DNA of 64,000 nucleotides from an uncultured Acidimicrobiaceae bacterium. Its GTDB lineage: Bacteria > Actinomycetota > Acidimicrobiia > Acidimicrobiales > RAAP-2. The notes below the pieces were generated by a model that saw only the letters and a list, made by a program, of their open reading frames with translations, made no database searches and was not told the DNA's origin. A program made the translations under genes and the position numbers. Below are positions 14,604 to 40,855 of this stretch, in pieces. The stretch is taken from positions 189,622 to 253,621 of the forward strand of contig CAVZZJ010000009.1 in the NCBI GenBank assembly GCA_963779735.1, given 5' to 3'. Numbering within the stretch: position 1 is the first letter of the stretch; every line of letters begins with the position of its first letter.

Positions 14604-15044
14604 TCAATCGCTGTCGAGGACGTATCGGGGACCGGAGCCCCGTTTCGCAGCCAGGTCGTCGGGGTTCATCAATTTGCAGACCCCCAACGAGAGGCAGCCA
14701 CAGCCGATGCACGCACCGAGGCGGTCCCGCAGTCGTTCGAGCATGGCGATCCGGGCGTCGATACGGGGACGCCACGAGTTGGACAGCCGCTGCCAATCCT
14801 TCTGATTCGGGGTACGGCTCTTTGGCAACGAACCCAGAGCAGCGCGGATCTCCTCGAGGGAGAGCCCGACTTGCTGGGCTACGAGGATGAATGACACCCG
14901 CCGGATGACGTCGCGGGCGTATCGGCGCTGTCCCCCGTCGGATCGGGTGGCCGAGATGAGACCCTCGGTCTCGTAGTACCGCAGCGCCGAGGTGGCCACG
15001 CCGGTACGTTCGCTCACGGCGCCGATCGTCAACTCTGGTCCCAT
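14604..15044 (-). CDS. soxR: redox-sensitive transcriptional activator SoxR (MerR family, [2Fe-2S])
   Basis: MerR HTH (LTIGAVSERTGVATSALRYYE) plus the SoxR cluster motif CIGCGCLSLGVCKLMNP near the C-terminus. Confidence 0.85.
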   Translation of the reverse strand: MGPELTIGAVSERTGVATSALRYYETEGLISATRSDGGQRRYARDVIRRVSFILVAQQVGLSLEEIRAALGSLPKSRTPNQKDWQRLSNSWRPRIDARIAMLERLRDRLGACIGCGCLSLGVCKLMNPDDLAAKRGSGPRYVLDSD

Positions 15045-15068: not shown

Positions 15069-15100
15069 CTTGACTTCAAGTGAACTTGAACAAGTACGGT
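15069..15100 (+). promoter_or_regulatory. SoxR-box promoter (-35 TTGACT, 19-nt spacer containing an inverted repeat, -10 TACGGT)
   Basis: TTGACT is at 15070-15075 and TACGGT at 15095-15100. The 19-nt spacer carries the perfect inverted repeat TTCAAGT-GA-ACTTGAA (15075-15090). It lies between soxR and the divergent oxidoreductase gene. Confidence 0.65.
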
Positions 15101-15127
15101 CGATACGAAACGAGCAAAGGAGCGTTC

Positions 15128-16108
15128 ATGCAGGCAATCCAGGTGGCACAGTTCGGCGGTCCAGAGGTGCTGGTGCCGGTCGACGTCCCCGACCCCATCG
15201 CCGGCCCGGGACAAGCGGTCATCGCCGCGACGGCAGCCGATCTCCTCTTCCTCGACGCCGTGATCCGCTCCGGCTTGGCCACCGAGTTCTTCCCGCTCCT
15301 GCCCCCCTACATCCCGGGCAACGGCGTTGCCGGCACCGTGGTCTCCGTCGGACCGGACACCGATGGCAACTGGATCGGTCGGCAGGTGGTGGCCCGCACC
15401 GGGGACAACGGTGGATCGGGAGGATACGCCCAGCGGGCGGTCGTTGCGGTCGATCACTTGGTCCCGGTTCCCGACAGCCTTGGCCTCCTCGAAGCCGCAG
15501 CCTTGCTCCACGATGGAGCCACCGCGCTGGGCCTGGTCGAGAGCTTTCCGATCCAATCCGGCCAATGGGTGCTCGTCGTGGGCGCCAGTGGCGGCCTCGG
15601 GGCCCTGTTGGTACAGCTGGCCCGCGTCGCCGGTGGACATGTCATTGGAGCAGCCCGTGGCCCGGCGAAACTGGACCTGGCCCTAGAGGTCGGCGCCGAC
15701 CTGGCGGTCGACAATTCCGATCCGGACTGGCCCAAAGCGGTGATCGAAGCGACCGGAGGTCACGGGGTGGACCTGGTGTTCGACAATGTCGGCGGACCCG
15801 TCGGCCTCGCCTCATTCGGGGCCATCGCCGCGGGCGGCCGGTTCTCCGCCCATGGTGCTCCCGCCGGCGGGTTCACCGTCGTCGACCCGACCGAAGCCGC
15901 CCGCCTCGGGGTGACCATACGAGGGATAGAACAGGCCCAGTTCTCCCCCTCCGACCTGATCCGGCTGACCAGAAGGGCGCTGGCCGACGGTGCCGAGGGG
16001 CTCATCCGTCCGATCATCGGACAAACCTTCCCGCTGGAACACGCGGCCGACGCGCACCGGGCCATCGAGACCCGCACCGTCATCGGGAAGACCTTGCTGG
16101 TCATCTGA
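15128..16108 (+). CDS. quinone oxidoreductase / zinc-type alcohol dehydrogenase superfamily (MDR) protein
   Basis: ATG at 15128 is preceded by AAAGGAG. N-terminus is MQAIQVAQFGGPEVL. The NAD(P) site is VVGASGGLG. C-terminus is GKTLLV. Confidence 0.8.
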   Translation: MQAIQVAQFGGPEVLVPVDVPDPIAGPGQAVIAATAADLLFLDAVIRSGLATEFFPLLPPYIPGNGVAGTVVSVGPDTDGNWIGRQVVARTGDNGGSGGYAQRAVVAVDHLVPVPDSLGLLEAAALLHDGATALGLVESFPIQSGQWVLVVGASGGLGALLVQLARVAGGHVIGAARGPAKLDLALEVGADLAVDNSDPDWPKAVIEATGGHGVDLVFDNVGGPVGLASFGAIAAGGRFSAHGAPAGGFTVVDPTEAARLGVTIRGIEQAQFSPSDLIRLTRRALADGAEGLIRPIIGQTFPLEHAADAHRAIETRTVIGKTLLVI

Positions 16109-17526: not shown

Positions 17527-19089
17527 TCACGGGGCGCTATTCGCGTGCCGACCCGGGCCAGCGTTGAATCTGGAGTACTCCTCCGCGCTGGACACCTTGG
17601 TGAATCCTTCCTGAACGAAGGGGGGTGGAGGTGACCCCAGCGGTGCCAACTGCGTTTCGGTGGGCTCACTGCAACAGAACCACGGCTCGGTGAGTCGGGC
17701 TCGCTCCCCCGCCGGTCCTTTCGAGATGGCCCCGCGGGGCGGCGGAGGGCGGAAGATCGCCGCCTTGGCACGGATCAGGGCGTCAATTTCCCCGAACGTC
17801 TGGGTGGCGGGCTGCTCAACGCGCTCTTCGACCAGCGTGGCCAACTCCTGCTGCAGTTGGTCGACCGCGGGATAAGGATGCGACCACGTCCAACCCAGCC
17901 GGGCCAAGTCGTACGGACCAAGGTGTGGTGTCATAAAGGCGCGCCCGAGCAGCAGGGAACCCTCCGGGACCAACAAGCGCACGGTGTACTGCACCGGGTC
18001 CACGTTGGGCACAAGGTCGTGGGCCATCACGAAGTCAACGAGGTCGACCAAGTCGTTGATCGTGGTCCAAGGGGTGAAAGGCAGCCATGAGGGGCGAACC
18101 TCGATGCCGTGGTCGCGCAGGAGCACTACGGCCTTAGACGCGTCGGCCACGCTATGACCTTTGTCGAGATGCTCGAGAATCATGTCGCTCACCGACTCGA
18201 ACGCCGAAACAACGAACGCACAGCCGGCTTCCGCCAACTCGGGCCACAGCTCTGGGTGGCGCAGGATGTGCTCTACCTTGGTCGTGCAGTCGAACGTCAG
18301 GTGCGGGTGGCGCTGGTGGATGGCCGCAACGACCCGGCGAGAGTGCAGCGGGGTATTGAGGAAATCGGGGTCGGCGAACGTGATGTGGCGAGCGCCGGCG
18401 GCAACCAACTGATCGACATCGGCGACGACTGCGGCTTCCTCCACGGCCCGCACTCTCCCGTCGTAGACGACTGGCACGGGACAGTGCCGGCATCGATGCG
18501 AGCAGCCCCGGCTGGCCTCGACCGATCCAACCAGTCGCTCCTCGCCGTCGACCGCCAATCGGGCGTAGCGATCGAGGGGCGGCAACAGGTGGCGGGCTGG
18601 CACTCGCGCCCTGACCCGGGTCAGGTGGATCGTGGGACCGGGGTCTTGACCCCCGGCCCACGCCACCAGGCCCGGTTCATACTCACCCGCGATGACCGCA
18701 TCGGTGGCCGATCTGACGGTGAGACTCCGGCTCACCTGTGCGTAGAGTCCATAGAAGCACAGCGGAAGCTCGGGCCGCCGGGTCCGGATCGTGTCGGCGA
18801 CGCGCAGCGCCAGGCGCATCGCGGTGTGCATCGGCACGGAAAACGCGATTCGGTCGGCCCAATCAACAGCGGCCGCGTCGAGCGGGTCGACGGCGAGGTC
18901 GACACATCGCACATCGTGGCCAACGGCCAGCAGCGCCGTGGCGGGCATGGCCAACTGCAGCGGCTGGTGCCCCAGCTCATAGGTGGAAATCAGAAGGACC
19001 CGCGTGAGCTCGAGCCTACCGGGGAGCTGACAGCGCCGCGACTCAGCGTATATGTACGTCGAGAGCGGCCTCTGCTCGGCGGAGGGCAT
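17527..19089 (-). CDS. B12-binding-domain radical SAM protein with C-terminal Cys-Cys tail motif (FCCSEP)
   Basis: ORF 17527..19146. The N-terminus has a Rossmann-like B12-type segment (RVLLISTYELGHQPL). The radical-SAM cluster motif is GCSHRCRHCP. PWFCCSEPTE lies about 49 aa from the stop. Start taken at Met 19089, which overlaps the ATP-grasp gene by 47 nt. Confidence 0.8.
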   Translation of the reverse strand: MPSAEQRPLSTYIYAESRRCQLPGRLELTRVLLISTYELGHQPLQLAMPATALLAVGHDVRCVDLAVDPLDAAAVDWADRIAFSVPMHTAMRLALRVADTIRTRRPELPLCFYGLYAQVSRSLTVRSATDAVIAGEYEPGLVAWAGGQDPGPTIHLTRVRARVPARHLLPPLDRYARLAVDGEERLVGSVEASRGCSHRCRHCPVPVVYDGRVRAVEEAAVVADVDQLVAAGARHITFADPDFLNTPLHSRRVVAAIHQRHPHLTFDCTTKVEHILRHPELWPELAEAGCAFVVSAFESVSDMILEHLDKGHSVADASKAVVLLRDHGIEVRPSWLPFTPWTTINDLVDLVDFVMAHDLVPNVDPVQYTVRLLVPEGSLLLGRAFMTPHLGPYDLARLGWTWSHPYPAVDQLQQELATLVEERVEQPATQTFGEIDALIRAKAAIFRPPPPRGAISKGPAGERARLTEPWFCCSEPTETQLAPLGSPPPPFVQEGFTKVSSAEEYSRFNAGPGRHANSAP

Positions 19090-20251
19090 CCTCGACCATC
19101 TTCGCCGTCGGTCCCCGGGCAAAGATGAAGCCCAAGTAGCGATCACCTTCGGGGAGGGGGATTACCGGCCGTCCCGACGCGATGGCGATCTCGATACCGA
19201 CGACTCCTTCGATGGCGCGGGCCCGCTCTTGGCCCGAGACCCCCTCGAGCACCCCGGCCGATCGGATCGGGAGCATCATCACGCCCGACGCCTCGGGCTC
19301 CCGAGCGAGACCGTCGAGCTCCATACCGAGAGCGTGACGGACAATGACCTCTTCGAGGCTGATCCCCGCACCAAAGCGCAAGGCCCGGGCACACAAGCCG
19401 CCGATGGAGCGAGCGGCCAGCTCGAGAATGGTGACGACACCTGTGGCGCTGAGGCGCAGCTCGATGTGCACAGGGCCTTCTACGAGTCCCAGTGCCGCGG
19501 CTGCTCGGGCCGCGGTGGCCTCAATGGCGGCAAGGATCGAGGGCGATTGCCGGGACGGCGTGACGTAGATGGTCTCCTCGAAAAAGGGGCCGTCCATGGG
19601 ATCGGGCTTGTCGAACACGGCCAGCACCCTCAGCTGGCCTCCCAAGAGCAGGCCCTCAACCGCTACCTCGGCGCCGGATACGAAGCTCTCCACGAGCAGG
19701 GGCTCTGGACTATCCCCCAAGATGGCCCGGATACGTACCCCGGCCGCGGCGGCCTGGGTCGCGTCGTCGGCGCGAATGACGCCCTGGCTGGCCGAAAGTG
19801 AGATGGGCTTGACCACGCACGGGTACCCAACTTCAGTCGCTGCCGAGGCGACGTCCGCGTCACGAGCAACGATTCGGTAGGCAGGCTGGGGCAGCGAGGC
19901 AGCGGCCAGGCAATCGCGCATGCGCCCCTTGTCCTTGGTGTTGGCGACCGCCTCGGGCGGGTTGTGACGTAGCCCCAGCCGCGCCGCTGACGCCGCCGCG
20001 ACCGCCACTCCCTGGTCATCGACCGCCAGGACGGCGTCGAGCGGTCTTCGCCGATGGAGAGACATGATGGCCTCCACGGCGGCGTCGCCTGCCTCGAGTG
20101 GCACGACGACGGCCCGATCGCCCATGAACCCGGCCAAGGCCTGGCGGTGCTCGGAGCCCACTACGACGTCGACACCCAGACGAGCGGCCGCGGCCAGGAA
20201 GTCCGCGGCTCGGTAGGTCCCGGTTGGCAGGAGCAGGAGGATGCGGGGCAC
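19043..20251 (-). CDS. ATP-grasp domain protein (carboxylate-amine ligase type)
   Basis: 402-aa ORF with a pre-ATP-grasp N-terminus, GYPCVVKP, ESFVSG.E..VEG and GP.HIELR, typical of ATP-grasp ligases. Confidence 0.8.
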   Translation of the reverse strand: MPRILLLLPTGTYRAADFLAAAARLGVDVVVGSEHRQALAGFMGDRAVVVPLEAGDAAVEAIMSLHRRRPLDAVLAVDDQGVAVAAASAARLGLRHNPPEAVANTKDKGRMRDCLAAASLPQPAYRIVARDADVASAATEVGYPCVVKPISLSASQGVIRADDATQAAAAGVRIRAILGDSPEPLLVESFVSGAEVAVEGLLLGGQLRVLAVFDKPDPMDGPFFEETIYVTPSRQSPSILAAIEATAARAAAALGLVEGPVHIELRLSATGVVTILELAARSIGGLCARALRFGAGISLEEVIVRHALGMELDGLAREPEASGVMMLPIRSAGVLEGVSGQERARAIEGVVGIEIAIASGRPVIPLPEGDRYLGFIFARGPTAKMVEDALRRAEAALDVHIR

Positions 20252-20296
20252 AGCCCTAGGATGGTACCGAGCGACGAAGGCTGAGGCGAAGGCATT

Positions 20297-20941
20297 ATGA
20301 CCGAGATCGGGACCAACGGCGTGCCCGTCCTGCGCGTGACCGACGCCGCTCTGGCCATGGTGCTCGAGGTGCGCGCCAGCGAGGACGGCGAGGAGTCACT
20401 CGCCCTCTGGCTCGAGATCAGCGGTTCGAGCGGGGACGCCTACACCTACGACATGTATTTCCAGTCGGCCGCCGACGCCCAGCCCGAGGATTGGTCCGCT
20501 GCGCCTAACGGACTGGCGCTCGTGGTCCGCAGCGACAGCGTCGAAAAGATGCGCGGGTCCGTCCTCGACGTCGGTGAGGGCGGGATGGTCATCGAGAACC
20601 CCAACCATCCTCCGGCACCGGCCGCCGCCAGCCCGGCGATGGCAGGTCCACCGGCCGACCTCAGCGGGGATGTGGCCCAGCGCATCCTCCAGGTCCTCGA
20701 AGAACAGATCAACCCGAGCATTGCGGCTCACGGCGGCCGGGCCGACCTCGTGGCGGTGGAGGATGACGCCGCCTACCTCCGTTTGAGCGGAGGCTGCGCG
20801 GGGTGTGGGATGGCCACGGTGACCTTGAGTCAGGGGATCGAAGTGGCCATACGCGAATCGGTTCCTGAGATCATTCGGGTGGTCGACGTCACCGATCACG
20901 CGGCGGGAACCAACCCGTACTACGAGGCAGCCAAGAAGTAG
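20297..20941 (+). CDS. NifU/Nfu-type Fe-S cluster assembly protein (degenerate HesB-like N-domain + Nfu C-domain)
   Basis: The C-terminal domain has INP.IAAHGG...V.......L.L.GGCAGCGM (CxxC). Confidence 0.75.
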   Translation: MTEIGTNGVPVLRVTDAALAMVLEVRASEDGEESLALWLEISGSSGDAYTYDMYFQSAADAQPEDWSAAPNGLALVVRSDSVEKMRGSVLDVGEGGMVIENPNHPPAPAAASPAMAGPPADLSGDVAQRILQVLEEQINPSIAAHGGRADLVAVEDDAAYLRLSGGCAGCGMATVTLSQGIEVAIRESVPEIIRVVDVTDHAAGTNPYYEAAKK

Positions 20942-20944
20942 GTT

Positions 20945-21676
20945 CTATGCGCCGACGAAACGGCGAGCGTCCTGCGCCGCATACGACGCGACAATCGCAT
21001 CGGTTGTAGCGGTTGCTTGGATCCGACCGATCAGGTCCTCAAGGCGGCTGGCTGGAATGGCGCACGTCATCTCCGCGCTCGGCATCGCGGTACGAGTACG
21101 GCTCAGCATGCAACCCACGCTGACCGCCACTTCCTCCTGCTGTTTGGCTACCGCCACAATGTGGCACTGCGGTTTGCCCTCGATGCGCAGGCCTGGCAGG
21201 GCGTCGGCGAGCACCATGAGCTGTTTGGCGTTGATGCGGATCAGCACCACGTCCGGATCGACCGGCGTTTCCGCCAGCGGGCCATAGACCACGAAATCAG
21301 GGCGGTCTGTCACAACGGGGATACCGGGGATCATGTCCATCGTCACCCATCCCGACTCCAGCAGGGCAGCCACATCGGTGCGGCCAGCCACCTCGTCAAG
21401 GGTGGCGAACCCGTGGGTGAGACTGCCCACGCTGCAGTTGCCGTGGTCCTCGGCAACCGTGGTGAATGTCCGATCGACTGCCTTGGTCCAAAACACGCAC
21501 CCCGCCGGAACCCGACCGGTTCGGCCGTCCGGGGTGGGTTCGGGCATGGGGGCATCGAACGGCCCGACACCGGCGGGGGCCGATGCGGAGAACGTGATGG
21601 CGATCGGTGACGTCCTGAGGTCCAGAGCGGCGGTGAGAGCGGTGGAGGCGTCGGACCAGCGCGCCGGAAGGGGCAT
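20945..21676 (-). CDS. DUF169 domain protein
   Basis: 243-aa ORF. SPIAITF, AGCVFW and HGNCSVG match my recollection of DUF169 proteins. Confidence 0.65.
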   Translation of the reverse strand: MPLPARWSDASTALTAALDLRTSPIAITFSASAPAGVGPFDAPMPEPTPDGRTGRVPAGCVFWTKAVDRTFTTVAEDHGNCSVGSLTHGFATLDEVAGRTDVAALLESGWVTMDMIPGIPVVTDRPDFVVYGPLAETPVDPDVVLIRINAKQLMVLADALPGLRIEGKPQCHIVAVAKQQEEVAVSVGCMLSRTRTAMPSAEMTCAIPASRLEDLIGRIQATATTDAIVASYAAQDARRFVGA

Positions 21677-21973: not shown

Positions 21974-23176
21974 TCATATCTCGAGCGGTACCTCGGCCAA
22001 CGACGGGGGCCACACCAGTCGCTTGCCCTGTTGGCGCCACTGCACCACGAGCACCGCGTGTTCGGCCTGGCGCCCGTCGGGGCCGAGTCCAAAGCGGCCG
22101 AAAAATGTGGTGCAGCGCAGCCTGCGGGCGGCCGCATACAGGGCGGCGTCCTCGACCATTCCCGCCTCATGCACACAACGAAGGGCGATGAGTCCAGCCG
22201 CATAGGCCTGGGCCGTGGGATAGTCGATGTGCCCGAGGTTAGGCCCGACTTCGAGCAACGGCGATATCCGGGCCCGTAGCGAACGCACAACGTCGGAGGG
22301 GCGGATCCCCACGTCAGGATCAAAGCGAGCCCCCTCTTCCCATTGGGACGGGGCCAGCACGCCCTCAGCCCGCACCTCGGCCGCGAAGGCCCCCAGCCCC
22401 GCGGCGACCGCGGCCAGGACCGGGGGCCGCCGGCGGAGCCGGCGGATGAGCGCCACGTCGTCGGCGAACGAGCCCGCCGCCAAGAGAATTTCCACATCCG
22501 GTTGGTCAGAAATCTCGTCGTGAGGCGCCACCGCCACCTCCATACCAAGGCGGCCAGCGGCGCTGACCGCACCATCGGCTACCGAGCTCCCGAAAGCGCC
22601 TCGGCCAGCAGCGACGACTACACGGGCGCCGGGCATCTGGGCAGAAACGGCATCGAGCACGGGAGCGAAATAGCAGCTCGCCGGAGCTGGGACTGAGACC
22701 ACGCCGGGAAGCCGTTGCGCCTCGTCGGCGCTGCCACCGTGGTTCCACAGCACGCGGCTTCGTTCCCCTGCCCAGCGAGCCGCCTCAACCACGAGATCGC
22801 TGCCGTAGGGCCCGATGACCAGGTCGGCACGCGCCAGCACGTCGAGTGCATGGCGCACGCCTGCCCGCGTGCCACCGTCGTCGAAAATCACGACCTCGGG
22901 CATGAGCGTCCGCTCGGCCAGCAGCACTCCGCCGCTATGCAACACGTCTTCGACGGCCTGTTGGAGTCCGGCCGCCGCCAGCCGGCCCAGATGGCCGTAC
23001 CGGCCGGTGAGCGACATTGGCGCCGCCAAAACCAAGGTGCCGTCCGACACTACGACCGGCCGGCCGAGTCCTCGCGCGCGCCCGCCTTTCCAACCTGGGG
23101 GGCTAACCGGAACATCAGCGAAATGCCGGTCATCACTGCTCCTTACCTCGACCGGCCGCATCATAGAGGCGTCCAC
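21974..23176 (-). CDS. LivK/AmiC-like type-I periplasmic-binding-fold protein without signal peptide
   Basis: 400-aa ORF with an SBP-like core (PMSLTGRYGHLG..AAG...AV, IGPYGS). It has no hydrophobic leader or lipobox. Exact start uncertain. Confidence 0.6.
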   Translation of the reverse strand: MDASMMRPVEVRSSDDRHFADVPVSPPGWKGGRARGLGRPVVVSDGTLVLAAPMSLTGRYGHLGRLAAAGLQQAVEDVLHSGGVLLAERTLMPEVVIFDDGGTRAGVRHALDVLARADLVIGPYGSDLVVEAARWAGERSRVLWNHGGSADEAQRLPGVVSVPAPASCYFAPVLDAVSAQMPGARVVVAAGRGAFGSSVADGAVSAAGRLGMEVAVAPHDEISDQPDVEILLAAGSFADDVALIRRLRRRPPVLAAVAAGLGAFAAEVRAEGVLAPSQWEEGARFDPDVGIRPSDVVRSLRARISPLLEVGPNLGHIDYPTAQAYAAGLIALRCVHEAGMVEDAALYAAARRLRCTTFFGRFGLGPDGRQAEHAVLVVQWRQQGKRLVWPPSLAEVPLEI

Positions 23177-23335
23177 ATTGGCGGGACCCGATCTTTGTGA
23201 TGAGGTCGTCTTTGGACACTCCGCCGATCGCGCTGCGCTGTGCCCGCCTAAAGGTACGCGACGAGTGACGAATCGCGCGATCGGAACAGATTCGGGGCCG
23301 ACGTCGCCAATTCGGGGTTGTCCAAGGTGGAATGC

Positions 23336-24145
23336 TCAGGCTTCGTCGGCTTCGCCACTGCGGCCGAGCTTCCAGTAACCCCGCACCGAGGCTTGGGACC
23401 GGGGCAGCCCTCGGTCCTCAAAGAGGTGGCGGCGGATGCGCTGCACCGCGGCGGCCTCTCCCGCCACCCACACCTGGATGCCGGGTTCGAGATCGGCACC
23501 GCGGACGGCGGCAAAGAGCGCGTCGCCGGGAGACGCACTGGGCGTTGGGTCGTACCACTCGGCGGTGACGCGTGGATGATCGGGCAGCGCGATCCGGGCG
23601 TCAGCGTGGGCGACCTCGATGTGCACCTGCACCGGCCTGTCGGCGGGCAGGGCCCGGAGAATTTGACTCAGGGCAGGGATGGCGGTCTCGTCCCCGCCCA
23701 GGAAGAAGGCGGGCGCGTCACTATCGATGACGTAGCCGCGGCCGGGACCTGAGATCGCTGCAGGGTCGCCGGCCGTGGCCGTTTGCGCCCATTTGGACGC
23801 GACCCCCCTGTCGTGGATGACGATGTCAAGCTCGAGCTCGAAGGTCTCGCGGTCGACGCGGCGCGGTGTGAAGGTCCGGATCGCGGGTCGTCGCCCGTCC
23901 GGCAGGAGAAACTCGTTGCCATGCCAGCTCGGGACGACGAGCTCTTGGGTTCCGGGCCATGGAAGCAGCAGCCGCACGCTCGCCGCCGGATGCTCGACGG
24001 TAAGACCCTCGAGGTCGGGGCCGGCGAACGTGACCCGGACCAGGCGGGGGTTCACGTAGCCGACTCGGCGAACCCACATCTGTCGAAACCGCGGTGGTTC
24101 ACGCCGGGAACGCTCCGTCGTCGGGTTCTGCACAGATCGGCTCAT
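23336..24145 (-). CDS. siderophore-interacting protein (FAD-binding_9 / SIP reductase family)
   Basis: 269-aa ORF with R.VRVTF.G, RTFTPR, GDETA.PA and VRGYWK motifs. Confidence 0.8.
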   Translation of the reverse strand: MSRSVQNPTTERSRREPPRFRQMWVRRVGYVNPRLVRVTFAGPDLEGLTVEHPAASVRLLLPWPGTQELVVPSWHGNEFLLPDGRRPAIRTFTPRRVDRETFELELDIVIHDRGVASKWAQTATAGDPAAISGPGRGYVIDSDAPAFFLGGDETAIPALSQILRALPADRPVQVHIEVAHADARIALPDHPRVTAEWYDPTPSASPGDALFAAVRGADLEPGIQVWVAGEAAAVQRIRRHLFEDRGLPRSQASVRGYWKLGRSGEADEA

Positions 24146-27683: not shown

Positions 27684-28949
27684 TCATCGGGTCGATGCGA
27701 ATTCGATATGGAGCGCTTCGACTCCCCTAAGGATATAGGTGGGGGTGTATTGGTAGCGCCGGGCTTCGGAAGGGCCATGCTCGGAATCTGATATCTGAAT
27801 GTCGGCGAGGCGATCGAGCATTCGTTCGAGGGTGGTCCGGCCGTCGGCTCTCACGAGCGGTGCTCCGGGGCACGCGTGAGTGCCGCGACCAAAGGCGACG
27901 TGCTCGCGTACATTGGGCCGGTCCATGTCGAACTCCGCTGGGCATGCGAAGCGGCGTTCGTCGCGATCTGCAGCCCCAGGAAGAAGTACGAGGCTGCTGC
28001 CGGCCGGGATCTTCGTGCCTCCGAGCGTGGTGGAGCGCCGAGCCACGCGGAAGTTCGTCTTGACCGGGCTGAACAGTCGGAGGGTCTCTTCGACGAAGTT
28101 CGGGATGCGATCAGGCTCCGCGCGCAGCAACCCTTGCAGCGCACCGTCCTCGGCGATGAGCCTCACCATGTTGCCCAAGAACCGAGCCGCCGTCCCCTGT
28201 CCCCCTGAAAAGAGAATCGTGGCCACTCGAGCGACCTCTATGACCTCGGGTGTCGACCCGTCGGCGAAGGCGGTCCTGGCCATCTTTCCAAGCACGTCGT
28301 CTTTTGGTTCGCGACGGCGTTCCTCGATATAGACGGTGAAGAAGTCCTCAAGGTACTCCAAGAAGTTACCTTCTACCGGCTTGCCGATCGTGCCCGCCGG
28401 GCCCTTGGCCACTGTCCTTCGTCGTAGCTCGGCGTGGTCGGACTCGGGGACCCCAAGGAGGTCGGCGACGACCAAGAGAGCAAACGGTTGGGCATATTCG
28501 GACATGAAGTCACATCTGCCCCTCGCGGCGAAGCCGTCGATCAGCTGGTCGGCCAGGCGCCACATAAAGTCTTCGTTCTCCTTGAGGCGCTTGGGCGTCA
28601 GGAGCCGCATCATCAGACCGCGGTGATCAGCGTGCTGCGGTTGGTCGAAGGTGATCAATGACTCGCTGCTGGGGAATACGCCGCGGTACTTCTCTATAAG
28701 TTCACTTGCGTCGTCACCGGCTGGTTGCTCGGGCAAGCCCGGGAAAGGACCACCGCCCGCGTTGCACGACGAAAAGGTGTCAGGGTCACGATAGATCGCT
28801 TGCATTTCGTCGTAGCCGGTCACGACATAAGTACCGTGATAGGGCTCCCGCCATACCGGGCCCTGCTCTCGAGCGTACTCGTAGTAGGGATACGGATCCT
28901 CCACAATGGAGACATCGCTGAAGAAATCGGCCACGCTCTCTTGACTCAC
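27684..28949 (-). CDS. cytochrome P450
   Basis: 421-aa ORF. The heme-binding loop is FGRGTHACPG, the ExxR motif is ETLR, and the I-helix is GG.GTA. GC is markedly lower than the window average. Confidence 0.9.
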   Translation of the reverse strand: MSQESVADFFSDVSIVEDPYPYYEYAREQGPVWREPYHGTYVVTGYDEMQAIYRDPDTFSSCNAGGGPFPGLPEQPAGDDASELIEKYRGVFPSSESLITFDQPQHADHRGLMMRLLTPKRLKENEDFMWRLADQLIDGFAARGRCDFMSEYAQPFALLVVADLLGVPESDHAELRRRTVAKGPAGTIGKPVEGNFLEYLEDFFTVYIEERRREPKDDVLGKMARTAFADGSTPEVIEVARVATILFSGGQGTAARFLGNMVRLIAEDGALQGLLRAEPDRIPNFVEETLRLFSPVKTNFRVARRSTTLGGTKIPAGSSLVLLPGAADRDERRFACPAEFDMDRPNVREHVAFGRGTHACPGAPLVRADGRTTLERMLDRLADIQISDSEHGPSEARRYQYTPTYILRGVEALHIEFASTR

Positions 28950-29109
28950 GGATAGGCCCTCCCTCGAAAGTCAACTACGACCATTGGCAAGCGTCGCGGG
29001 CTGCTGAGCGACTGTCTAGCATGGGGTGGACTCAAGGTCAACAAGCGCCGGGCAGGGTGGACACAAGACCACGGATTCAGCGCGTCACTAGTCACGGGGA
29101 AGAGGTACC

Positions 29110-29144
29110 AAACGATCTTCGCACTCGACGAAGATCGTTTTCAG
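29110..29144 (-). terminator. possible bidirectional intrinsic terminator
   Basis: A perfect 12-bp stem (aaacgatcttcg / cgaagatcgttt) encloses a 7-nt loop. T-runs flank it on both strands. It lies downstream of the HGD-like gene. Confidence 0.4.
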
Positions 29145-29181
29145 CTAGCGCCAAGTCTCGGAGACAGCTGATCGGCGACCG

Positions 29182-30345
29182 TCATTCCTGTGACCAGCTC
29201 TTGAAGTAGACGGGGTCGCTTACCGATTTGGCTACTTCGCTGATCGCGAGTTGCGAAAAGCAATCGATCATGACTGCGGTCTCTTCCGTGCGATCTTTGG
29301 AGTCTGAGCTTTCCCGGCTACCGGGGTGCGGACCGTGGACGAATCCGGCTGGATGCACGGTAAGAGAACCGGCACCGATTCCAGCACCCCTGCGACTCAT
29401 GAAGTCCCCACTGACATAGAAGAGGATCTCATCGGAATCGACGTTCGCATGGTGGTATGGAACTTTGACAGCCGAGGGATCGAAATCAAACGGACGCGGT
29501 ACGAAGCTGCAAACGACGAAACCTTGACCCACAAAGGTCTGGTGCACTGGAGGCGGTTGGTGGATCCGGCCGACAATGGGTTCAAAATCACTTATTGAAA
29601 GCGCGAAGGGATAGAGGCAACCGTCCCACCCAACCACGTCAAACGGGTGATGTGAATGGTGATGTTCAGACCAACCATTGCGCGTGCGCACGAGCACGGG
29701 AACATCCTCACCCTCAAGGACAATCAGGTCGCCTGGAGGACGGATATCACGCTCGCAAAATGGAGCACCTTCACGCAGTTGACCGGTCTTGGTCAGATAG
29801 CGTTCTGGGAGGCCTACATGACCCTTGGCCTCTAGAACGAGGGCTTGCACCTGTGCCGCTTGTGGGTCAATTATCCAGCGATGGGTTGTTGAACCTGGAA
29901 CGACGACGTAGTCTCCAGCGGAGACTACGAGACGGCCAAAGGCGGACTCGAGAGTTGCCTTCCCGGCCTGGATGAACAGAAGTTCGTCTCCAATCGCGTT
30001 GCGATAGAGCTCGCTATTGGCGTCTGCCGATGCGTAGCAGATCGTGACCGTCTCACAAGATAGAAGCGTGTGCCGTCCGGTGACGAGATCACCACCCGGC
30101 GGGATTTCCGAAGCACGCAGATGCCAGGGCAAGAGAGGTTGATTCGAATGTATCGGTGAGCGTGCAATCTCTACCGATTCGACACGATCGATCGCACTGG
30201 GCGAATTTAGGTGGTACAAGAGGGATGAATGGCTGGAGAATCCCTCCTGGCCTATTAGTTCCTCGTTTAGGGGGCGTCCATCAACGTGACGATGCAACGT
30301 GTGACGTTTGCGGGGCACCGATCCGACACTGACGTAGTAGGGCAC
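29182..30345 (-). CDS. hmgA: homogentisate 1,2-dioxygenase-like cupin (short actinobacterial/Bacillus-type form)
   Basis: 387-aa ORF with YHHANVDSDE and HP.G..HGPHPG segments. It lies in an operon with FAH and HPPD. Confidence 0.7.
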   Translation of the reverse strand: MPYYVSVGSVPRKRHTLHRHVDGRPLNEELIGQEGFSSHSSLLYHLNSPSAIDRVESVEIARSPIHSNQPLLPWHLRASEIPPGGDLVTGRHTLLSCETVTICYASADANSELYRNAIGDELLFIQAGKATLESAFGRLVVSAGDYVVVPGSTTHRWIIDPQAAQVQALVLEAKGHVGLPERYLTKTGQLREGAPFCERDIRPPGDLIVLEGEDVPVLVRTRNGWSEHHHSHHPFDVVGWDGCLYPFALSISDFEPIVGRIHQPPPVHQTFVGQGFVVCSFVPRPFDFDPSAVKVPYHHANVDSDEILFYVSGDFMSRRGAGIGAGSLTVHPAGFVHGPHPGSRESSDSKDRTEETAVMIDCFSQLAISEVAKSVSDPVYFKSWSQE

Positions 30346-30348
30346 TGC

Positions 30349-31512
30349 TTATCGACCCCTCACTCCATCGATCGTTCCAAGGACGGTTCCGAACGAGATC
30401 CACTCATTTCCCGTTCGATTTCCACACCAGCCTCGAATCTCCACACGGTCTCCGTCCTGTAGCCACGTTCTGCTGTCTCCGGAATCGAGGGTTATGGGAT
30501 TTCTGCCGGCCAAAGTCAGCTCCATCAGACTGCCTGCGCTCTGCGGCCGCGAGCCTGAGATGGTGCCGGAGGCGAAAAGGTCCCCGGTGCGAACGGACGC
30601 ACCATTCGACGTGAGGTGGGCCAACTGTTGGGCCATCGACCAGTACAGGCCACGTGCGTTCATCTCGCTGACCAGCGAGTCGTTAATGCGTAGTTGGAGA
30701 TGCAGGTCTAGTGCCCGAGGTTCCTTTTCTCGCAAATGAGGCTCGGGTTCGGGTTGTTGGCAGGGTCCTTGGACCCAATATTCGCTCAGCGAGCCAAGAG
30801 GCACGACCCAAGGAGAGACAGAGGTTGCAAACGACTTTCCCAAAAACGGGCCGAGGGGATGATATTCGAAGGACTGTATGTCTCTGGCGCTCCAGTCATT
30901 GACGAGTACGGCACCGAAGACATGATTTTTCGCCTCTGCTGTCGAAATTGGACATTCACGCTGGTTGCCAACGCCCACCACGAATCCCAATTCCACTTCG
31001 ACGTCGAGCCTCTCGGAGGGCCCATAGGCGGGACCGGAGCCGGTCGCACGAATTCCTGACGGTCGACCTATGGAGTCACCACTCACTAGGACGGTCGCCG
31101 ATCGCCCGTGATAACCGATCGGTAAGTACTTCCAGGCTGGCGGCAGGGGATCTGCATCAGGGCGGAGCAGACGGCCCATCGAAGCGGCGTGTTCCTCGCA
31201 CGCGTAGAAGTCGACGTAGTCGGCGACCTCCCAGGGCAGGACCAGTTGCACCTCGTCCATCGGGCGCAGAGCGCTGCCCGGCAAGTCAGCGAGGTGCTTC
31301 TGGATCTGCATCTGCGTCCTCCTCCAGGCGTCGGGCCCCAGTTCCATGAATGCATTGAGCGAGCCCGAGGTCCAACATTCGGGCCCGACATCTAAATGCG
31401 TGAGCTGAGATAAATCGATGACGTTCTGATGGTATGCGACGACAACGTGCCCAGCGTCGTCGACTCCATAAGGCAGGTTCCTCGAGCCGTAACCTCCCAC
31501 CCAATCAATCAT
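30349..31512 (-). CDS. fumarylacetoacetase
   Basis: 387-aa ORF with N-terminal NLPYGV and a C-terminal FAH-fold region (GDLFASGT.SG, DGD.V). Confidence 0.8.
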   Translation of the reverse strand: MIDWVGGYGSRNLPYGVDDAGHVVVAYHQNVIDLSQLTHLDVGPECWTSGSLNAFMELGPDAWRRTQMQIQKHLADLPGSALRPMDEVQLVLPWEVADYVDFYACEEHAASMGRLLRPDADPLPPAWKYLPIGYHGRSATVLVSGDSIGRPSGIRATGSGPAYGPSERLDVEVELGFVVGVGNQRECPISTAEAKNHVFGAVLVNDWSARDIQSFEYHPLGPFLGKSFATSVSPWVVPLGSLSEYWVQGPCQQPEPEPHLREKEPRALDLHLQLRINDSLVSEMNARGLYWSMAQQLAHLTSNGASVRTGDLFASGTISGSRPQSAGSLMELTLAGRNPITLDSGDSRTWLQDGDRVEIRGWCGNRTGNEWISFGTVLGTIDGVRGR

Positions 31513-32287
31513 GGAGGCCGTCCAAGTGCTCCATATGTTCTCCGTGGCGTATCGAGGGACTCTTCGAGGATGACTCTTACTGTCATTTCACCGAGCGTGG
31601 GATGGGTGCCACTTCGCTCCCATGCACCTGGATCCATTAAGGGACTCAGCTGGCGAAGGTAATCAAGACAGGGAAGTATTTCTTGACGATGGACTTCGGG
31701 GTCACCACCCTGCGCAATCGCGCTGCGTCTGTTCCGATCTGCCTTCGTCCGTCCGAAAGGGATGGGCTTTTTGTCTGCGGACGAGTCAAGTACTGCGGTC
31801 ATTGTTGACGCCGGTAAGGTCCGAACTCGGCCATATGTGCCCACTCGGTTCCATCATTCCACCGCTCGTGAGTTCCTGGATCCGGTTCTGTCAAGCCGGT
31901 GCGCCGCGGCCGAAGTGAGAGGCGGCGTGGCCGGACCTCGATGAGGTCGAGTCGTCCAATCCAGGTGTCAACCGTCCACGCGCCATCGTGTATCGGAAGC
32001 GCCCACTCTGCTTCGAGGGCCGGCACGATGGCCGTGCCGTCGAGCTCTGGTAGGTCTGCGAGCTCTGCTCGTAGCTCCGACGCGCGGTGATCTGGGTAGC
32101 GATTTAAATCGGTAATCCCTCTATTCAGAGCAGACCCAACCCAAGGCAACGGGTCCAAGGACAGTTCGTTCGATGCCAGCCTTACAGCACTCGCAAGTCC
32201 GTGGTAATTCATCGCTTGCTGCGCCGCTCGACCGGGTCGGTATGACGGCAGGGCCTCTGCGGCGGCTCGTGGTTTTATGGAGTGCAC
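31509..32287 (-). pseudogene. decayed HisC-like (class II) aminotransferase
   Basis: The first ~70 codons (ALPSYRPGR..VRLASNE..LNRYPD..ASELRAELA) are HisC/aromatic-aminotransferase-like. The last ~30 codons (..MTVRV..) lie in a different frame and end in an ATGA overlap with FAH. The PLP-binding core is missing: the span is 779 nt against about 1080 expected. Confidence 0.5.
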
Positions 32288-32288
32288 T

Positions 32289-33413
32289 TCAGAGGTTGCC
32301 TCGGCGAGCTTGATCGCGCTCGATCGCTTCAAAGAGTGCCTTGAAGTTACCCTCGCCAAAGCCGGTGGCACCCTCTCTCTGAATAACTTCAAGGAAGAGC
32401 GTAGGGCGATCGGTAATCATCTCTGAGAAGATCTGCAGTAGGTATCCGCCGGAATCCTTGTCGACCTCTATTCCGAGTTCCTCAAGGTGTGTCCACGGCA
32501 GATCGAACTCCCCGCAGCGTTCGCGGGCATCCTCGTAGTAGGTAGATTGGAGGTGTAAGAACCGGACGCCTCGGTGCGACAGCGCGTCCACGGCGGCAAT
32601 CGCATCTTGAGTTCTCATTGCGATGTGCTGCACTCCTGGGCCACCGTAGAAGTCGAGAAACTCGGCGATCTGGCTCTTCTTGAGCCCTGGTGCCGGCTCA
32701 TTGATTGGCATCACGATTCCGGACCAATTGTGTACCACCGTGGAACGAAGCGCTGAATACTGTGTCGAGATCTGCTCCGCATCGAAATGAAGCATCTGGC
32801 TGAAGCCCAGAACCTCCTCATACCAGGCAACCCATTCGTCGAGGCGCCCCTCCTCGACGTTGGTAACCACGTGGTCAATCGAGTCGAGGCCGGGTGTGGC
32901 CCAGGGGGGTGCTGGCGGAAGCCGCTCGTGCGAGAAGTACGGGGCCCATAAACCGTTGTGCATTGAGCGATCCACGAAGACGAGTTGGATGTTTCCGTAC
33001 GCGACGATCGTCGCTGTAGTTACCGACCCGCCCTCACATTGAACGGTCGACGGTTCGGCGATGACCGCAGCTCCGCGACTCTCGGCCATCGCGACTACCG
33101 ATTCGGGGTCCTCGACCCGCCACGCCAGGCGGCGCACCCCGTCCCCGTGCTCGAGAACGTATTGGGCGACGTCAGAGTCAGCCGCCAGCCCGGCCGTGAT
33201 CAGAAACCGGATATCCCCCTGCTCCAACAGGTAGGAGACTCGGTCGCGGAGCCCGGTCTCTGGCCCGGCGTAGGCAGAGACATGAAATCCAAAGCCTGCG
33301 CACAACCATGCCGTGACGGCCCGTGCGTTTCCCACCCACCACTCAACATGATCCCAGGCGAGCAACTGATCGGCCACGGTAGAGGTTGATCTCAGATTGG
33401 ACGTGGAAGTCAT
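32289..33413 (-). CDS. hppD: 4-hydroxyphenylpyruvate dioxygenase
   Basis: 374-aa ORF with two VOC modules and the C-terminal signature GFGEGNFKALFEAIERDQARRGNL. Confidence 0.9.
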   Translation of the reverse strand: MTSTSNLRSTSTVADQLLAWDHVEWWVGNARAVTAWLCAGFGFHVSAYAGPETGLRDRVSYLLEQGDIRFLITAGLAADSDVAQYVLEHGDGVRRLAWRVEDPESVVAMAESRGAAVIAEPSTVQCEGGSVTTATIVAYGNIQLVFVDRSMHNGLWAPYFSHERLPPAPPWATPGLDSIDHVVTNVEEGRLDEWVAWYEEVLGFSQMLHFDAEQISTQYSALRSTVVHNWSGIVMPINEPAPGLKKSQIAEFLDFYGGPGVQHIAMRTQDAIAAVDALSHRGVRFLHLQSTYYEDARERCGEFDLPWTHLEELGIEVDKDSGGYLLQIFSEMITDRPTLFLEVIQREGATGFGEGNFKALFEAIERDQARRGNL

Positions 33414-33503
33414 GCCTCTGGACTACTCACCTGCCATAAAAAGGTCAACAGAGCAGCTATTAGTTGGGCTATATGACTATGTACGCGCCGATATAATGAT
33501 CAT

Positions 33504-33986
33504 ATGAGTCATTCTGAGACCCTTGATGCGATCGATCGGCGTCTTTTGGTCGCTCTCACACATGCGCCACGCGTCGGGATGCTCGCCCTTGCCCGTGCTG
33601 CCGGCGTGGCCCGAAACACGGCGCAAGCTCGGGTGAATCGAATGGTCGCCCTTGGGATCATCACCGGATTCGGACCGGAGCTCGACCTGCGTCGACTCGG
33701 CTATACGGTGTCTGCCTTTGTAAGCGTCGAAATCGCGCAGGGCCGCGGCTCGTTAGTTGACGAAGCTCTTATTGCGATCCCCGAGGTCGTAGGGGCATGG
33801 ATGACGACTGGACCGGCCGACCTGTTGTGCCATGTCGTCGCGCATGACAACGATCATCTGGGAGAGGTGATCAATCTGCTCCTCAATATACGCGGGGTTA
33901 CCCGCACCACGACCTCCCTGTTGCTGACCACGCGGGTGCCCCCCCGAACGCTTCACCTGCTCACCGATCCGAAACAGAGCACTTAG
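33504..33986 (+). CDS. Lrp/AsnC family transcriptional regulator
   Basis: It has an HTH (LD..DRRLL..L....R......LA...GV...T...R) followed by an AsnC/RAM domain. It is divergent from hppD. Confidence 0.85.
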   Translation: MSHSETLDAIDRRLLVALTHAPRVGMLALARAAGVARNTAQARVNRMVALGIITGFGPELDLRRLGYTVSAFVSVEIAQGRGSLVDEALIAIPEVVGAWMTTGPADLLCHVVAHDNDHLGEVINLLLNIRGVTRTTTSLLLTTRVPPRTLHLLTDPKQST

Positions 33987-34047
33987 CAAATCGTAGAACC
34001 CCAGAATACGGATTGCGTTGCGGGCATGGCCGCCGAATGTTTCACCG

Positions 34048-35271
34048 TTACGACCCGGCGGTCACGCCCGGCAGGACAGTGCCGCAGAGAGGTTCAGCGC
34101 CCTTGACCAACTTGAAGCCGTTACCGACGAGCTTGACCATCCATGTGCAGCGGATGGAGGCGAGTACATGGGTGCGGTCGTTGATGTTGATGGTGCGCCC
34201 CCCCCACAGTCCGAGAGCGCCCCAGCTATGGATGCCCTGTAGGGCGCTCAAGATCGAAGCCGAGGTGGACTTCGATCCGGCGGACTTGAGAGCTTGCAGC
34301 AGGAGGCCTACGGAGGTGTACCCGAAGTACTCGGCGTCGGTGGGCACGCCGGTCGTACCGGCCGCGGCCAGATCCGCCTGGAACTGCTTGGTGGCGGAAG
34401 TCCCCATCTCGACCGGTTCGAAGCCAAGAAGAAAGTAGGCATCCTGCGCCTGCTGGACCGCACCTGGGCCGGCTCGGAGGATGTCGGCGCCGTAGCCGTC
34501 CGGCAGTATTGCGGCCTTGAGGTTGACGCCCATCTGGCGCAGGGCGGTGATGAGCGCCAAGCCGGTGTTCGTCTCGACCGCGGGGTAGATCGAATCCACG
34601 TGTGCCGCCTTCAGCGCCAGGGCGACGGGCCCGACGTTTGTGCTGCCGTAGGGGAGGTTGGAGTTGACGTAGCCCGGCTTGAGACCGGCCGCCACCGCCG
34701 ACTTGGCGACGCCGATGGCGGAGTCGGCCGACGCCGGTGAGATGCCGTAGCCGAGCGTGCCGACGGTGGTGGCCCCGAGTAGCTTGAGCAGCCGCCCGAA
34801 GGTGGAGGTGACGGCGGTGATGTGGAGCGCCCCCTCGACCGAGAACATGTTGGTGTCGGTCGCCCATTCGCTGGCGTCCACGGGGGCCCCGATCACTGGG
34901 ATGTGCTGGGACATCAGGTATGGCGCGGCGGCAAACGTGACGGCCGACTCGGCGAGGATCACGTTCACGTGATCCTCGGCCACGAGCCGCTGCGCGGTCG
35001 ACAGTGCGCTGGACGGCGACGTTTGGGTGTCTCCTAATACGTACTTGATGTTGTAGCCCTCGTGCTTAGCCAGCACGATGCCGGCCTCGATGCCGTTGAG
35101 GTAGGCCTTGGTGCCCGAGGCGCCCGGGCCGGTGTAGTCCTCGAGGACTCCGATGGTAATTGTCTTTCCACCGCCCTCGCTAGCGCTGGAGTTAGACGAA
35201 CCAAACGCGGCTGCTAGCAGCGCGACCACTGCCGCGACCGCGATGGTCCTGACCGTGTTCTTGATCATCAA
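34048..35271 (-). CDS. ABC-transporter substrate-binding protein (branched-chain amino acid / LivK type), secreted
   Basis: 407-aa ORF. The signal peptide is MMIKNTVRTIAVAAVVALLAAAF. It is homologous to the ORFs at 53745 and 55266. Confidence 0.8.
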   Translation of the reverse strand: MMIKNTVRTIAVAAVVALLAAAFGSSNSSASEGGGKTITIGVLEDYTGPGASGTKAYLNGIEAGIVLAKHEGYNIKYVLGDTQTSPSSALSTAQRLVAEDHVNVILAESAVTFAAAPYLMSQHIPVIGAPVDASEWATDTNMFSVEGALHITAVTSTFGRLLKLLGATTVGTLGYGISPASADSAIGVAKSAVAAGLKPGYVNSNLPYGSTNVGPVALALKAAHVDSIYPAVETNTGLALITALRQMGVNLKAAILPDGYGADILRAGPGAVQQAQDAYFLLGFEPVEMGTSATKQFQADLAAAGTTGVPTDAEYFGYTSVGLLLQALKSAGSKSTSASILSALQGIHSWGALGLWGGRTININDRTHVLASIRCTWMVKLVGNGFKLVKGAEPLCGTVLPGVTAGS

Positions 35272-35335
35272 GACCTCCTGGCTTATTTTTCTCAGGCGCG
35301 TGCGGAACCGGAACCACGCGAGCGGCGAGAGGGAT

Positions 35336-36535: not shown

Positions 36536-36643
36536 TTCCGTCTCCTCGTCACCTTCCGGCGCCTGCGTGGCGTCGCACTCTTGTTATGGCCGCCGGATCG
36601 GCCGCATCTCGCCAAATTCCAAGCTCGACCGGCCCGGCATGAG

Positions 36644-38071: not shown

Positions 38072-38218
38072 CGTTACCCTCCTCGGACTTGCTCCGGCTC
38101 TATCGCCCGACCAGTTGGTGAGATCGCCAGTGGATCGGGTCCTGCCGGCGCGGCGAACCTAAGGTCCTTCGGTGGGCTGGAACTAGTGTGGTCGCGATCT
38201 CGCAGCCTGGCCCCACGG

Positions 38219-39460: not shown

Positions 39461-39732
39461 AACAACTCCTCTGTTAGAAGCGTCGAATACGCGGGCGGGT
39501 TAGAGATGCTTGCCGTTAGGAACCGGGACCGAGTGGCCCAAGCCGGACCAGTTGCGTGAGGCGGTGGCAGCCAGGCTGGGCCAACCTGCCTTTCAAGGTC
39601 CGCAACTTGCATGAGCCCCCAGCCCTCCTCCACCGTGCAGCGTTGAATCGAACCACAGGGTCCGTTACTGCGCAAGTGATCCATCCGCATCTGACCCAGA
39701 TAGTCAATCTGGCCCGATGATTTCCCGATCAG

Positions 39733-39749: not shown

Positions 39750-39779
39750 TTCGTTCAACCTCAATGGGAAGGATCCGGC

Positions 39780-40829: not shown

Positions 40830-40855
40830 TCTCCGTGCACCCCGTCGGCGCTGAG

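Follow-up and report, generated by a model that had tools for sequence, protein, structure and literature searches.

ArsL, an enzyme of arsinothricin biosynthesis (arsQML), is to our knowledge the sole canonical-fold radical S-adenosylmethionine (SAM) enzyme known so far to cut SAM at the 'wrong' bond. It moves the aminocarboxypropyl (ACP) group of SAM to As(III) held by the cysteines of its tail, all three of which are required; the tail is free of auxiliary clusters, and in the course of the reaction an organometallic species with an Fe-C(ACP) bond is formed (bioRxiv 10.1101/2024.02.01.577332; 10.64898/2026.04.29.721666). Here we analyse a gene for a relative of ArsL in a 64,000-nucleotide (nt) stretch of DNA, hereafter the window, from an uncultured Acidimicrobiaceae bacterium (GCA_963779735.1, contig CAVZZJ010000009.1, positions 189,622 to 253,621). 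The gene lies in a module (17527-21676) together with genes for an ATP-grasp ligase, an NfuA-like iron-sulfur (Fe-S) cluster carrier and a DUF169 protein. The ligase is of the L-amino-acid ligase (LAL) type, and the products of known LALs often consist of a 'warhead', a non-proteinogenic amino acid, bound to a carrier amino acid. Its closest solved homologue, BL00235, yields Met-Gly and Met-Met (PMC6920838).

A sequence-only reading of the locus had described a two-gene module, in which the ligase is paired with a B12-binding radical SAM enzyme bearing a Cys-Cys tail, and had pointed to an NCBI family named CUAEP/CCAEP-tail radical SAM (seleno)protein. The family exists as NCBIfam NF040546 and takes in the window protein. 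The relationship to ArsL was not part of that reading and is the strongest mechanistic lead. As judged from profile scores, alignments and gene neighbourhoods, what is new at this locus is that an enzyme of the ArsL type has another kind of tail and other partner genes, within a catalogued uncharacterised family.

The radical SAM protein, its family and ArsL

Against NF040546 the window protein scores 542.6 bits, above the curated cutoff of 500 (E = 7e-163, profile positions 1-467 of 468), and by this measure it is a true member of the family with cysteine in place of selenocysteine (Sec). Its radical SAM core domain (18034..18519, minus strand; Pfam PF04055, Radical_SAM, 52.4 bits) includes the CxxxCxxC [4Fe-4S] motif GCSHRCRHCP (18478-18507, minus strand), the three cysteines of which are invariant in 46/46 diverse family members. 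Closer to the C-terminus lies the conserved tail motif LTEPWFCCSEPTETQLAPL (17638..17694, minus strand), which contains PWFCCSEPTE (17656-17685, minus strand) and the second Cys position of which is Sec, encoded by TGA, in many aligned relatives. In the window the pair is encoded by TGT TGC (17671-17676, residues 472-473), with no in-frame TGA in the gene; it stands 47 residues from the C-terminus, where the sequence-only reading had counted about 49, and in the motifs and codons themselves that reading was correct. The triad and the tail pair are the only cysteines conserved family-wide. We rejected an auxiliary Fe-S cluster in this protein: C32, C81 and C260 are invariant in close homologues, yet not across the family.

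The tail motif is followed by a C-terminal extension of 36 amino acids (aa) (PPPPFVQEGFTKVSS...; 17530..17637, minus strand) that is non-conserved in the alignment and predicted to be disordered. Most homologues are without it, although P0001 has it, and at locus L001 (94% identity) a stop codon directly after ...APLGSP leaves the product without the extension. Compared with the family, then, the window protein shares the tail motif and the radical SAM triad and differs in the Ser after the Cys pair, in carrying Cys and not Sec, and in this extension.

The gene occupies 17527..19089 on the minus strand and encodes 520 aa, as drawn from its open reading frame (ORF), start codon, profile score and an independent NCBI gene call. 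The longest ORF (17527..19146) has a GTG start and would yield 539 aa. Because the ORF has no ATG, GTG or TTG near the typical start of homologues ('MRVLL...', residue V50), translation most likely begins at the ATG at 19089. The same 520-aa product appears in the NCBI gene call on contig JBLFKL010166274.1 of GCA_052915825.1, which encodes an ATP-grasp protein 100% identical to that of the window, and the homologue P0001 starts at the equivalent of this ATG. Homologues at 94-100% identity are present in public data, and with the NF040546 E-value this puts the finding well outside what chance could give.

To describe the family, we searched 1.84 billion representative protein sequences with a profile. 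The search returned 553 clusters (50% identity) below E = 1e-30, a count that includes ArsL-type proteins, and at least 582 matches were found among GTDB species genomes. Tails in the clusters either read [ST]E[PSA]W[FY]C-C-AEPT or end right after '...WFC'. At the DNA level, 161 loci have TGC (81), TGA (58) or TGT (19) as the main codons of the second tail position, and the main tail variants are CCSEP (69), C-TGA-AEP (57) and CCAEP (28); the CCSEP form with Ser for Ala, as in the window, is found mostly in Acidimicrobiia. Sec-type loci keep the AEP motif in frame beyond the TGA. They also carry a hairpin, GAGGGCC-AGUUC-GGCCCUC, about 15 nt past the UGA, with compensatory substitutions between lineages (L060, L061, L067, L072-L078, L081-L083 and ~45 more, in the region from TGA to +48 nt). 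Cys-type loci, including the window, are without it (mean z of -1.15 for TGA-type versus +0.08 for Cys-type loci; Mann-Whitney p = 3.5e-12). The hairpin looks like a bacterial Sec insertion sequence (SECIS) element, and together with the in-frame AEP it argues that the Sec members are real and that the window encodes a Cys-for-Sec form. Elsewhere, as Haft noted, CU motifs occur in proteins that handle Hg or organometals (bioRxiv 10.1101/2022.07.06.499078).

The second-best family for the window protein is the ArsL model NF040542, at 298.5 bits and below its cutoff of 450; true ArsL proteins reach 656 bits (P0238) and 477 bits (P0258) on the same model. Identity to P0238 is 33% over 406 residues, and the score with the AprD4 hidden Markov model (HMM) is 33.6 bits. 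The proteins have a common architecture, made up of a Rossmann-like N-domain, a PF04055 core and a Cys-bearing C-terminal tail, and many invariant residues in common, and the CC of the window tail aligns with the CC of the ArsL motif RCCLKC. By these comparisons ArsL is the nearest and only characterised relative of the window protein. NF040546 is the sister group of ArsL, or perhaps the group from which ArsL arose, going by sequence relationships that include a quick neighbour-joining tree, tentative and without branch support, in which ArsL falls inside the NF040546 radiation.

The window protein is nonetheless not ArsL, judging from its score below the HMM cutoff, its tail and its genomic setting. 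The RCCLKC tail of ArsL has three arsenite-binding cysteines, whereas the NF040546 tail EPWFC-C/U-(A/S)EPT has two and no third conserved Cys. The cluster motif is CxxxCxHCP in NF040546 and CxxxCxYCS in ArsL, and H282 and E438/W440 are likewise family-specific. ArsL occurs with arsM and arsQ in an ars operon; the window gene has no ArsM or ars neighbours and is accompanied by the LAL-type ligase, NfuA-like and DUF169 genes. Lastly, many NF040546 members are selenoproteins, unlike ArsL.

An AlphaFold2 (AF2) model of the protein has a mean predicted local distance difference test (pLDDT) score of 82.4; confidence drops at the tail pair, and model residues 454-490, towards the C-terminal extension, fall below 50. 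Among the fold matches listed, the best is AprD4 (E = 1.4e-15, template modelling (TM) score 0.64); OxsB, MgmA, TsrM and MiaB come next, and TokK and CysS also appear. No ArsL structure was found in a PDB sequence search or among the fold-search matches listed.

Conserved partners of the radical SAM gene

The ligase gene (19043..20251, minus strand, 402 aa) is identified by its Pfam architecture and PDB homologues. It matches ATPgrasp_N (PF18130, 38.4 bits), ATP-grasp_4 (PF13535, 94.4 bits) and LAL_C2 (PF18603, 54.4 bits), and aligns with BL00235 (PDB 3VOT; E = 1.3e-36, residues 22-381) and with BacD (E = 1.7e-14). The nucleotide and Mg motifs VVKP..SQGV, ESFVSGAE, GPVHIELR and LELAARSIGG align with those of characterised LALs, so that on sequence evidence the protein is a full-length LAL with intact motifs. 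It matches none of the named LAL equivalogs (BacD 54.5 versus a cutoff of 850, DdaF 39.2 versus 840). The three-domain architecture is shared with BL00235, BacD/YwfE, RizA and TabS; unlike any described LAL, the window ligase sits in a module with a radical SAM enzyme and an Fe-S carrier. A search for ligase homologues returned only close relatives (at least 76% identity) and none from outside the module.

The end of the ligase gene and the start of the radical SAM gene overlap by 47 nt (19043..19089, minus strand), the ligase TGA (19043-19045) lying inside the radical SAM start region. This arrangement had been noted in the sequence-only reading and agrees with the ORFs and the independent gene call; it suggests co-transcription and translational coupling of the two genes. 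Divergent from the ligase, across 45 bp (20252..20296) presumed to hold both promoters, is the NfuA-like gene (20297..20941, plus strand, 214 aa). Its product combines a Cys-less A-type-like N-domain with a NifU/Nfu C-domain containing CxxC. With scores of 77 bits for Pfam NifU, 88 for NfuA (TIGR03341, cutoff 269) and 24 for the A-type N-domain (cutoff 58.8), it is similar to NfuA in architecture and, by these cutoffs, not the equivalog. The DUF169 gene (20945..21676, minus strand, 243 aa; Pfam PF02596, 80 bits) encodes a protein with conserved C60, C81, C171, C189 and C205, five cysteines that sit in loops poorly modelled by AF2. This protein has no PDB sequence match, a Foldseek search with its AF2 model (pLDDT 65) gave nothing significant, and mentions of it in the literature are incidental.

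We examined the neighbourhood of the family in two scans, the first covering 80 loci in GTDB species genomes (Acidimicrobiales, Solirubrobacterales and related metagenome-assembled genomes (MAGs)) and the second covering metagenomes, seeded with distant Sec-type members. In the first scan, the ATP-grasp gene lies directly upstream of the radical SAM gene on the same strand at ~74/80 loci, an NfuA-like gene almost invariably diverges from the ATP-grasp gene, and DUF169 adjoins in ~50/80. We then counted linkage at loci flanked by at least 3 kb on either side, taking partners within 3 kb. Among 60 Cys-Cys loci, ATP-grasp is present at 53, Nfu at 56, DUF169 at 39, DsrE-like at 3 and YggX at 0; for the 24 Cys-Sec loci the corresponding numbers are 13, 11, 1, 7 and 6. 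The identities of ATP-grasp and radical SAM proteins to those of the window co-vary (r = 0.92, 105 loci). Partner-less Sec-type loci (L105, L107, L119 and others) are one lineage by wide synteny and are uninformative.

The module genes also recur in reshuffled orders, in lineages of differing GC content that include low-GC ones (L117, L120, L125, L136, L139, L146, L160). At L125 the order is radical SAM, Nfu, ATP-grasp, DUF169; at L136 it is Nfu, DUF169, ATP-grasp, radical SAM; and at L120 it is DUF169, radical SAM, ATP-grasp, with Nfu on the opposite strand. A short Nfu gene stands between radical SAM and ATP-grasp, in that order, at L117, L135, L149 and L160, and at L139 and L146 YggX precedes radical SAM, with ATP-grasp convergent downstream. 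Some genomes carry the core of NfuA-like, ATP-grasp and radical SAM genes twice, ~145 kb apart (L002/L003, CAVZBW010000005.1) or ~610 kb apart (L015/L016, OY970336.1); DUF169 is full-length at L002, L015 and L016, and at L003 only its C-terminal part is matched. The pairing of ATP-grasp and radical SAM genes anticipated by the sequence-only reading is therefore conserved, but the module is larger than the two genes described there: DUF169, the divergent NfuA-like gene, the LAL-type ATP-grasp gene and the radical SAM gene travel together across very distant lineages. Literature searches found no paper describing the four-gene module or the fusions described below.

Fe-S genes (NfuA-like, short Nfu, YggX, ApbC) adjoin the radical SAM gene in independent lineages, and further neighbours are lineage-specific, namely DsrE-like, rhodanese, ApbC/NUBPL-type carrier, YggX, formyltransferase and UbiE-type methyltransferase genes. 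A DsrE/DsrF-like protein (121 aa, Pfam 23.5 bits) is encoded directly downstream of, and convergent with, the radical SAM gene on the opposite strand at nine genome loci, all in Solirubrobacterales MAGs (L061, L064, L070-L074, L076, L078), and such matches lie just downstream of it at six metagenome loci (L085, L086, L088, L090, L100, L148). At L125, where no DsrE-like gene occurs, a rhodanese-domain protein is encoded directly upstream. In a low-GC lineage (L111, L116, L133, L138, L139, L146) a YggX/Iron_traffic gene overlaps the radical SAM start, and all of these loci except L116 also have a formyltransferase-like gene divergently upstream; L143 has a formyltransferase-like gene upstream with no YggX called, and L146 has the UbiE-type methyltransferase gene between radical SAM and ATP-grasp.

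Two fusions were found. P0265 (850 aa, tail CCAAP) is an in-frame LAL-radical SAM fusion encoded at L163 8001-10553 (GCA_004366215.1, SIRY01000078.1), with the usual divergent NifU gene immediately upstream; being a singleton, it may be an assembly error. P0137 (695 aa) consists of a family radical SAM protein with the tail TEQWYCCAEPTERQL, a natural Pro-rich linker and a MerB (alkylmercury lyase) domain. Its contig (JGI metagenome 3300047160, 8.3 kb) bears another MerB gene, this one standalone, and genes for a sulfotransferase, an FGGY kinase and a carbamoyltransferase. No MerB genes were found near other family members in 163 loci.

Proposed chemistry and rival explanations

The account we favour, though tentatively and with more doubt than confidence, is ArsL-like transfer of ACP to a soft atom on the Cys-Cys tail, followed by dipeptide formation by the ligase. 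The [4Fe-4S] cluster would split SAM at C-gamma-S and not at C5'-S, as in ArsL, and ACP would go to a soft atom that the vicinal Cys-Cys pair of the flexible tail (in relatives, Cys-Sec) binds or carries. The product would be a methionine- or glutamate-like non-proteinogenic 2-amino-4-X-butanoate, released with methylthioadenosine; methionine itself is ACP-S-CH3. The ligase would then activate a carboxylate as an acyl phosphate and couple the 2-amino-4-X-butanoate with a second amino acid. The NfuA-like protein would supply or repair the 4Fe-4S cluster, and the DUF169 protein would be an accessory that probably binds a metal or cluster through Cys ligands and may serve as an electron or atom donor.

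A soft-atom acceptor is hinted at by the radical SAM-MerB fusion, the DsrE-like and rhodanese neighbours, the Sec variants with their SECIS-like hairpin and Haft's remark on CU motifs. The candidates for X would be As(III), a soft metal such as Hg, and S or Se delivered in persulfide or perselenide form. Homology to ArsL suggests As(III), against which stand the missing third Cys and the lack of nearby ars genes. The MerB fusion and the analogy of CC/CU to MerA and MerT suggest Hg or an organometal. The DsrE and rhodanese neighbours and the recurrent Fe-S theme suggest S or Se. In mercuric reductase (MerA) a C-terminal vicinal Cys-Cys, in MerT a CC and in thioredoxin reductase a GCUG tail carry a soft metal ion or redox equivalents into an active site. 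They resemble the family tail in placing vicinal Cys-Cys or Cys-Sec on a flexible C-terminal segment, yet the folds are unrelated, which makes this analogy and not homology, and the only direct link is the single radical SAM-MerB fusion.

Several points weigh against this proposal. The site at which SAM is cleaved cannot be read from the sequence, and the family is described as uncharacterised (bioRxiv 10.1101/2022.07.06.499078), in line with the sequence-only reading; our text searches found no paper characterising it and nothing newer than that preprint. With only two tail cysteines, coordination of arsenite by three thiolates is excluded. Around the module, the 161 loci show no conserved ars, mer or sel genes and no conserved gene for a SAM-dependent methyltransferase, an exporter or resistance, and the broad, near-universal occurrence of the module in some clades of Acidimicrobiales fits housekeeping better than antibiotic production. 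In the pathway the ligase may precede or follow the radical SAM enzyme. About half of the Sec-type loci with adequate flank have no ligase, so the role of the radical SAM enzyme is not strictly ligase-dependent. Lastly, both fusions are singletons from metagenomes and are therefore suggestive only.

The main rival, which we consider unlikely but which deserves serious weight, is canonical chemistry. A 5'-deoxyadenosyl (5'-dA) radical would abstract hydrogen from a small molecule or from a dipeptide made by the ligase, resulting for example in epimerisation, dehydration or C-C or C-S bond formation, with the flexible Cys-Cys or Cys-Sec tail donating a hydrogen atom or shuttling redox equivalents. 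Such a tail would have analogues in ribonucleotide reductase, with its C-terminal Cys pair, and in thioredoxin reductase, with its GCUG tail. Nearly all PF04055 enzymes form the 5'-dA radical, AprD4, the best fold match, is a canonical dehydratase, and exchange between Sec and Cys is typical of redox-active residues, the switches in this family being scattered over the tree; the two tail cysteines, as opposed to three in ArsL, fit as well. By sequence, however, the closest characterised protein is ArsL and not AprD4 (298.5 versus 33.6 bits), the tail pair aligns with the substrate-binding CC of ArsL, and the MerB fusion and sulfur-relay neighbours indicate the handling of heteroatoms.

We regard as improbable a third explanation, insertion of S or Se as in LipA and MiaB. 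LipA and MiaB are sulfur-insertion enzymes, and NfuA rebuilds the sacrificial cluster of LipA. Here, an Fe-S cluster or persulfide from NfuA, DsrE or rhodanese, perhaps held by DUF169, would be consumed to make a thio- or seleno-metabolite. Fe-S carriers adjoin in nearly all lineages, DsrE-like and rhodanese genes are among the neighbours, MiaB structures are among the fold matches, and the five conserved cysteines of DUF169 lie in poorly modelled loops. While these observations fit, the radical SAM protein has no conserved cysteines for an auxiliary cluster (C32, C81 and C260 not being family-wide), HMM scores with MiaB, RimO and MtaB are negligible (~18-22 bits), and DsrE and rhodanese are limited to particular lineages.

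Very improbable is a cobalamin-dependent radical SAM methyltransferase acting on the product of the ATP-grasp enzyme, in keeping with the B12-type N-domain and the methyl transfer proposed in the sequence-only reading. The Rossmann-like 'B12-binding'-type N-domain (18667..18996, minus strand) does match Pfam PF02310 above threshold, if marginally (36.9 versus 32.1 bits), and TsrM, MgmA, TokK and CysS are among the fold matches. Against this, all curated B12-radical SAM methylase HMMs score at or below 46.2 bits (cutoffs 251-650), and an Rfam scan of the window gave no hit of any kind, cobalamin riboswitches included. According to a 2026 review, AprD4 and homologues of ArsL contain a Rossmann-like domain but bind no cobalamin (PMC12931638), and the ArsL preprint does not mention cobalamin in its assays (bioRxiv 10.1101/2024.02.01.577332; 10.64898/2026.04.29.721666). 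The domain probably does not bind cobalamin, given the AprD4 fold match, the ArsL assays and the review, and for the same reasons the suggestion of methyl transfer is weak.

Least probable of all is that the pair modifies a ribosomal peptide or protein (as a graspetide-like system with a radical SAM enzyme, or by C-terminal tailing), since although ATP-grasp and radical SAM pairs are known in some clusters for ribosomally synthesised and post-translationally modified peptides, the ligase has the LAL_C2 and ATPgrasp_N architecture with free-amino-acid ligases as its best matches, the module has no small ORF or precursor peptide and no space for one (gaps of just 45 bp and 114 bp and two overlapping genes), and no conserved small gene, precursor peptide, protease, transporter or tailoring gene was found across the 161 loci, as the sequence-only reading had found for the operon.

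ACP transfer to a tail-bound soft atom would have wider consequences. It is possible, if doubtful, that the module represents a widespread, unrecognised pathway, in Acidimicrobiia, Thermoleophilia and several other lineages including low-GC ones, in which a non-canonical, ArsL-type and often Sec-assisted reaction links the aminocarboxypropyl group of SAM to a heteroatom, through a C-Se, C-S, C-As or C-Hg bond, and the product is packaged as a dipeptide, with ArsL as a specialised offshoot of a larger ACP-transferring family. NF040546 is far larger than ArsL and includes many selenoproteins. If it shares ArsL chemistry, soil bacteria would commonly transfer ACP to heteroatoms, a reaction that would then no longer be a curiosity, and new organo-selenium, -arsenic or -sulfur amino acids and dipeptides could emerge, possibly as antimetabolites. 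The four-gene set occurs in many soil bacteria, and because the conserved partners (LAL-type ligase, NfuA-like and DUF169) define a four-gene construct, the function of the family is directly testable.

Surroundings of the module

Scans for promoters, terminators and operators gave counts at chance, and there are no inverted repeats in intergenic regions; the 45-bp divergent region has no sigma-70-like site and no inverted repeat. Genes downstream of the radical SAM gene (a glyoxalase-family VOC protein, a quinone oxidoreductase and a MerR-type regulator) were rejected as module members, with no match in the 80 genome loci, L001 included. The regulator (14604-15044, minus strand) was assigned to the MerR family by eye from its translation and has a SoxR-like CIGCGCLSLGVC motif; divergent from it is the zinc-type quinone oxidoreductase (15080-16108, plus strand; ADH_N/ADH_zinc_N annotation). 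On the other side, the stretch at 21974-24145, which borders the module, encodes a solute-binding protein (Peripla_BP_6) and a protein of the siderophore-interacting type (FAD_binding_9 and SIP). This pair occurs in the window arrangement only in L001 and L014, the closest relatives, and the Peripla_BP_6 protein by itself matches ~12 other loci at varying positions.

Further along, a low-GC region of aromatic catabolism (28-42 kb) was considered as part of the module and found to be unrelated. It spans 27684-41863, has a GC content of 0.58-0.64 versus ~0.69, and consists of a minus-strand cluster of genes for a P450, a homogentisate-dioxygenase-like protein, a fumarylacetoacetase, an HPPD-like dioxygenase, a Peripla_BP_6 protein, three Amidohydro_2 enzymes and a methyltransferase. 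The cluster is possibly an island gained by horizontal transfer.

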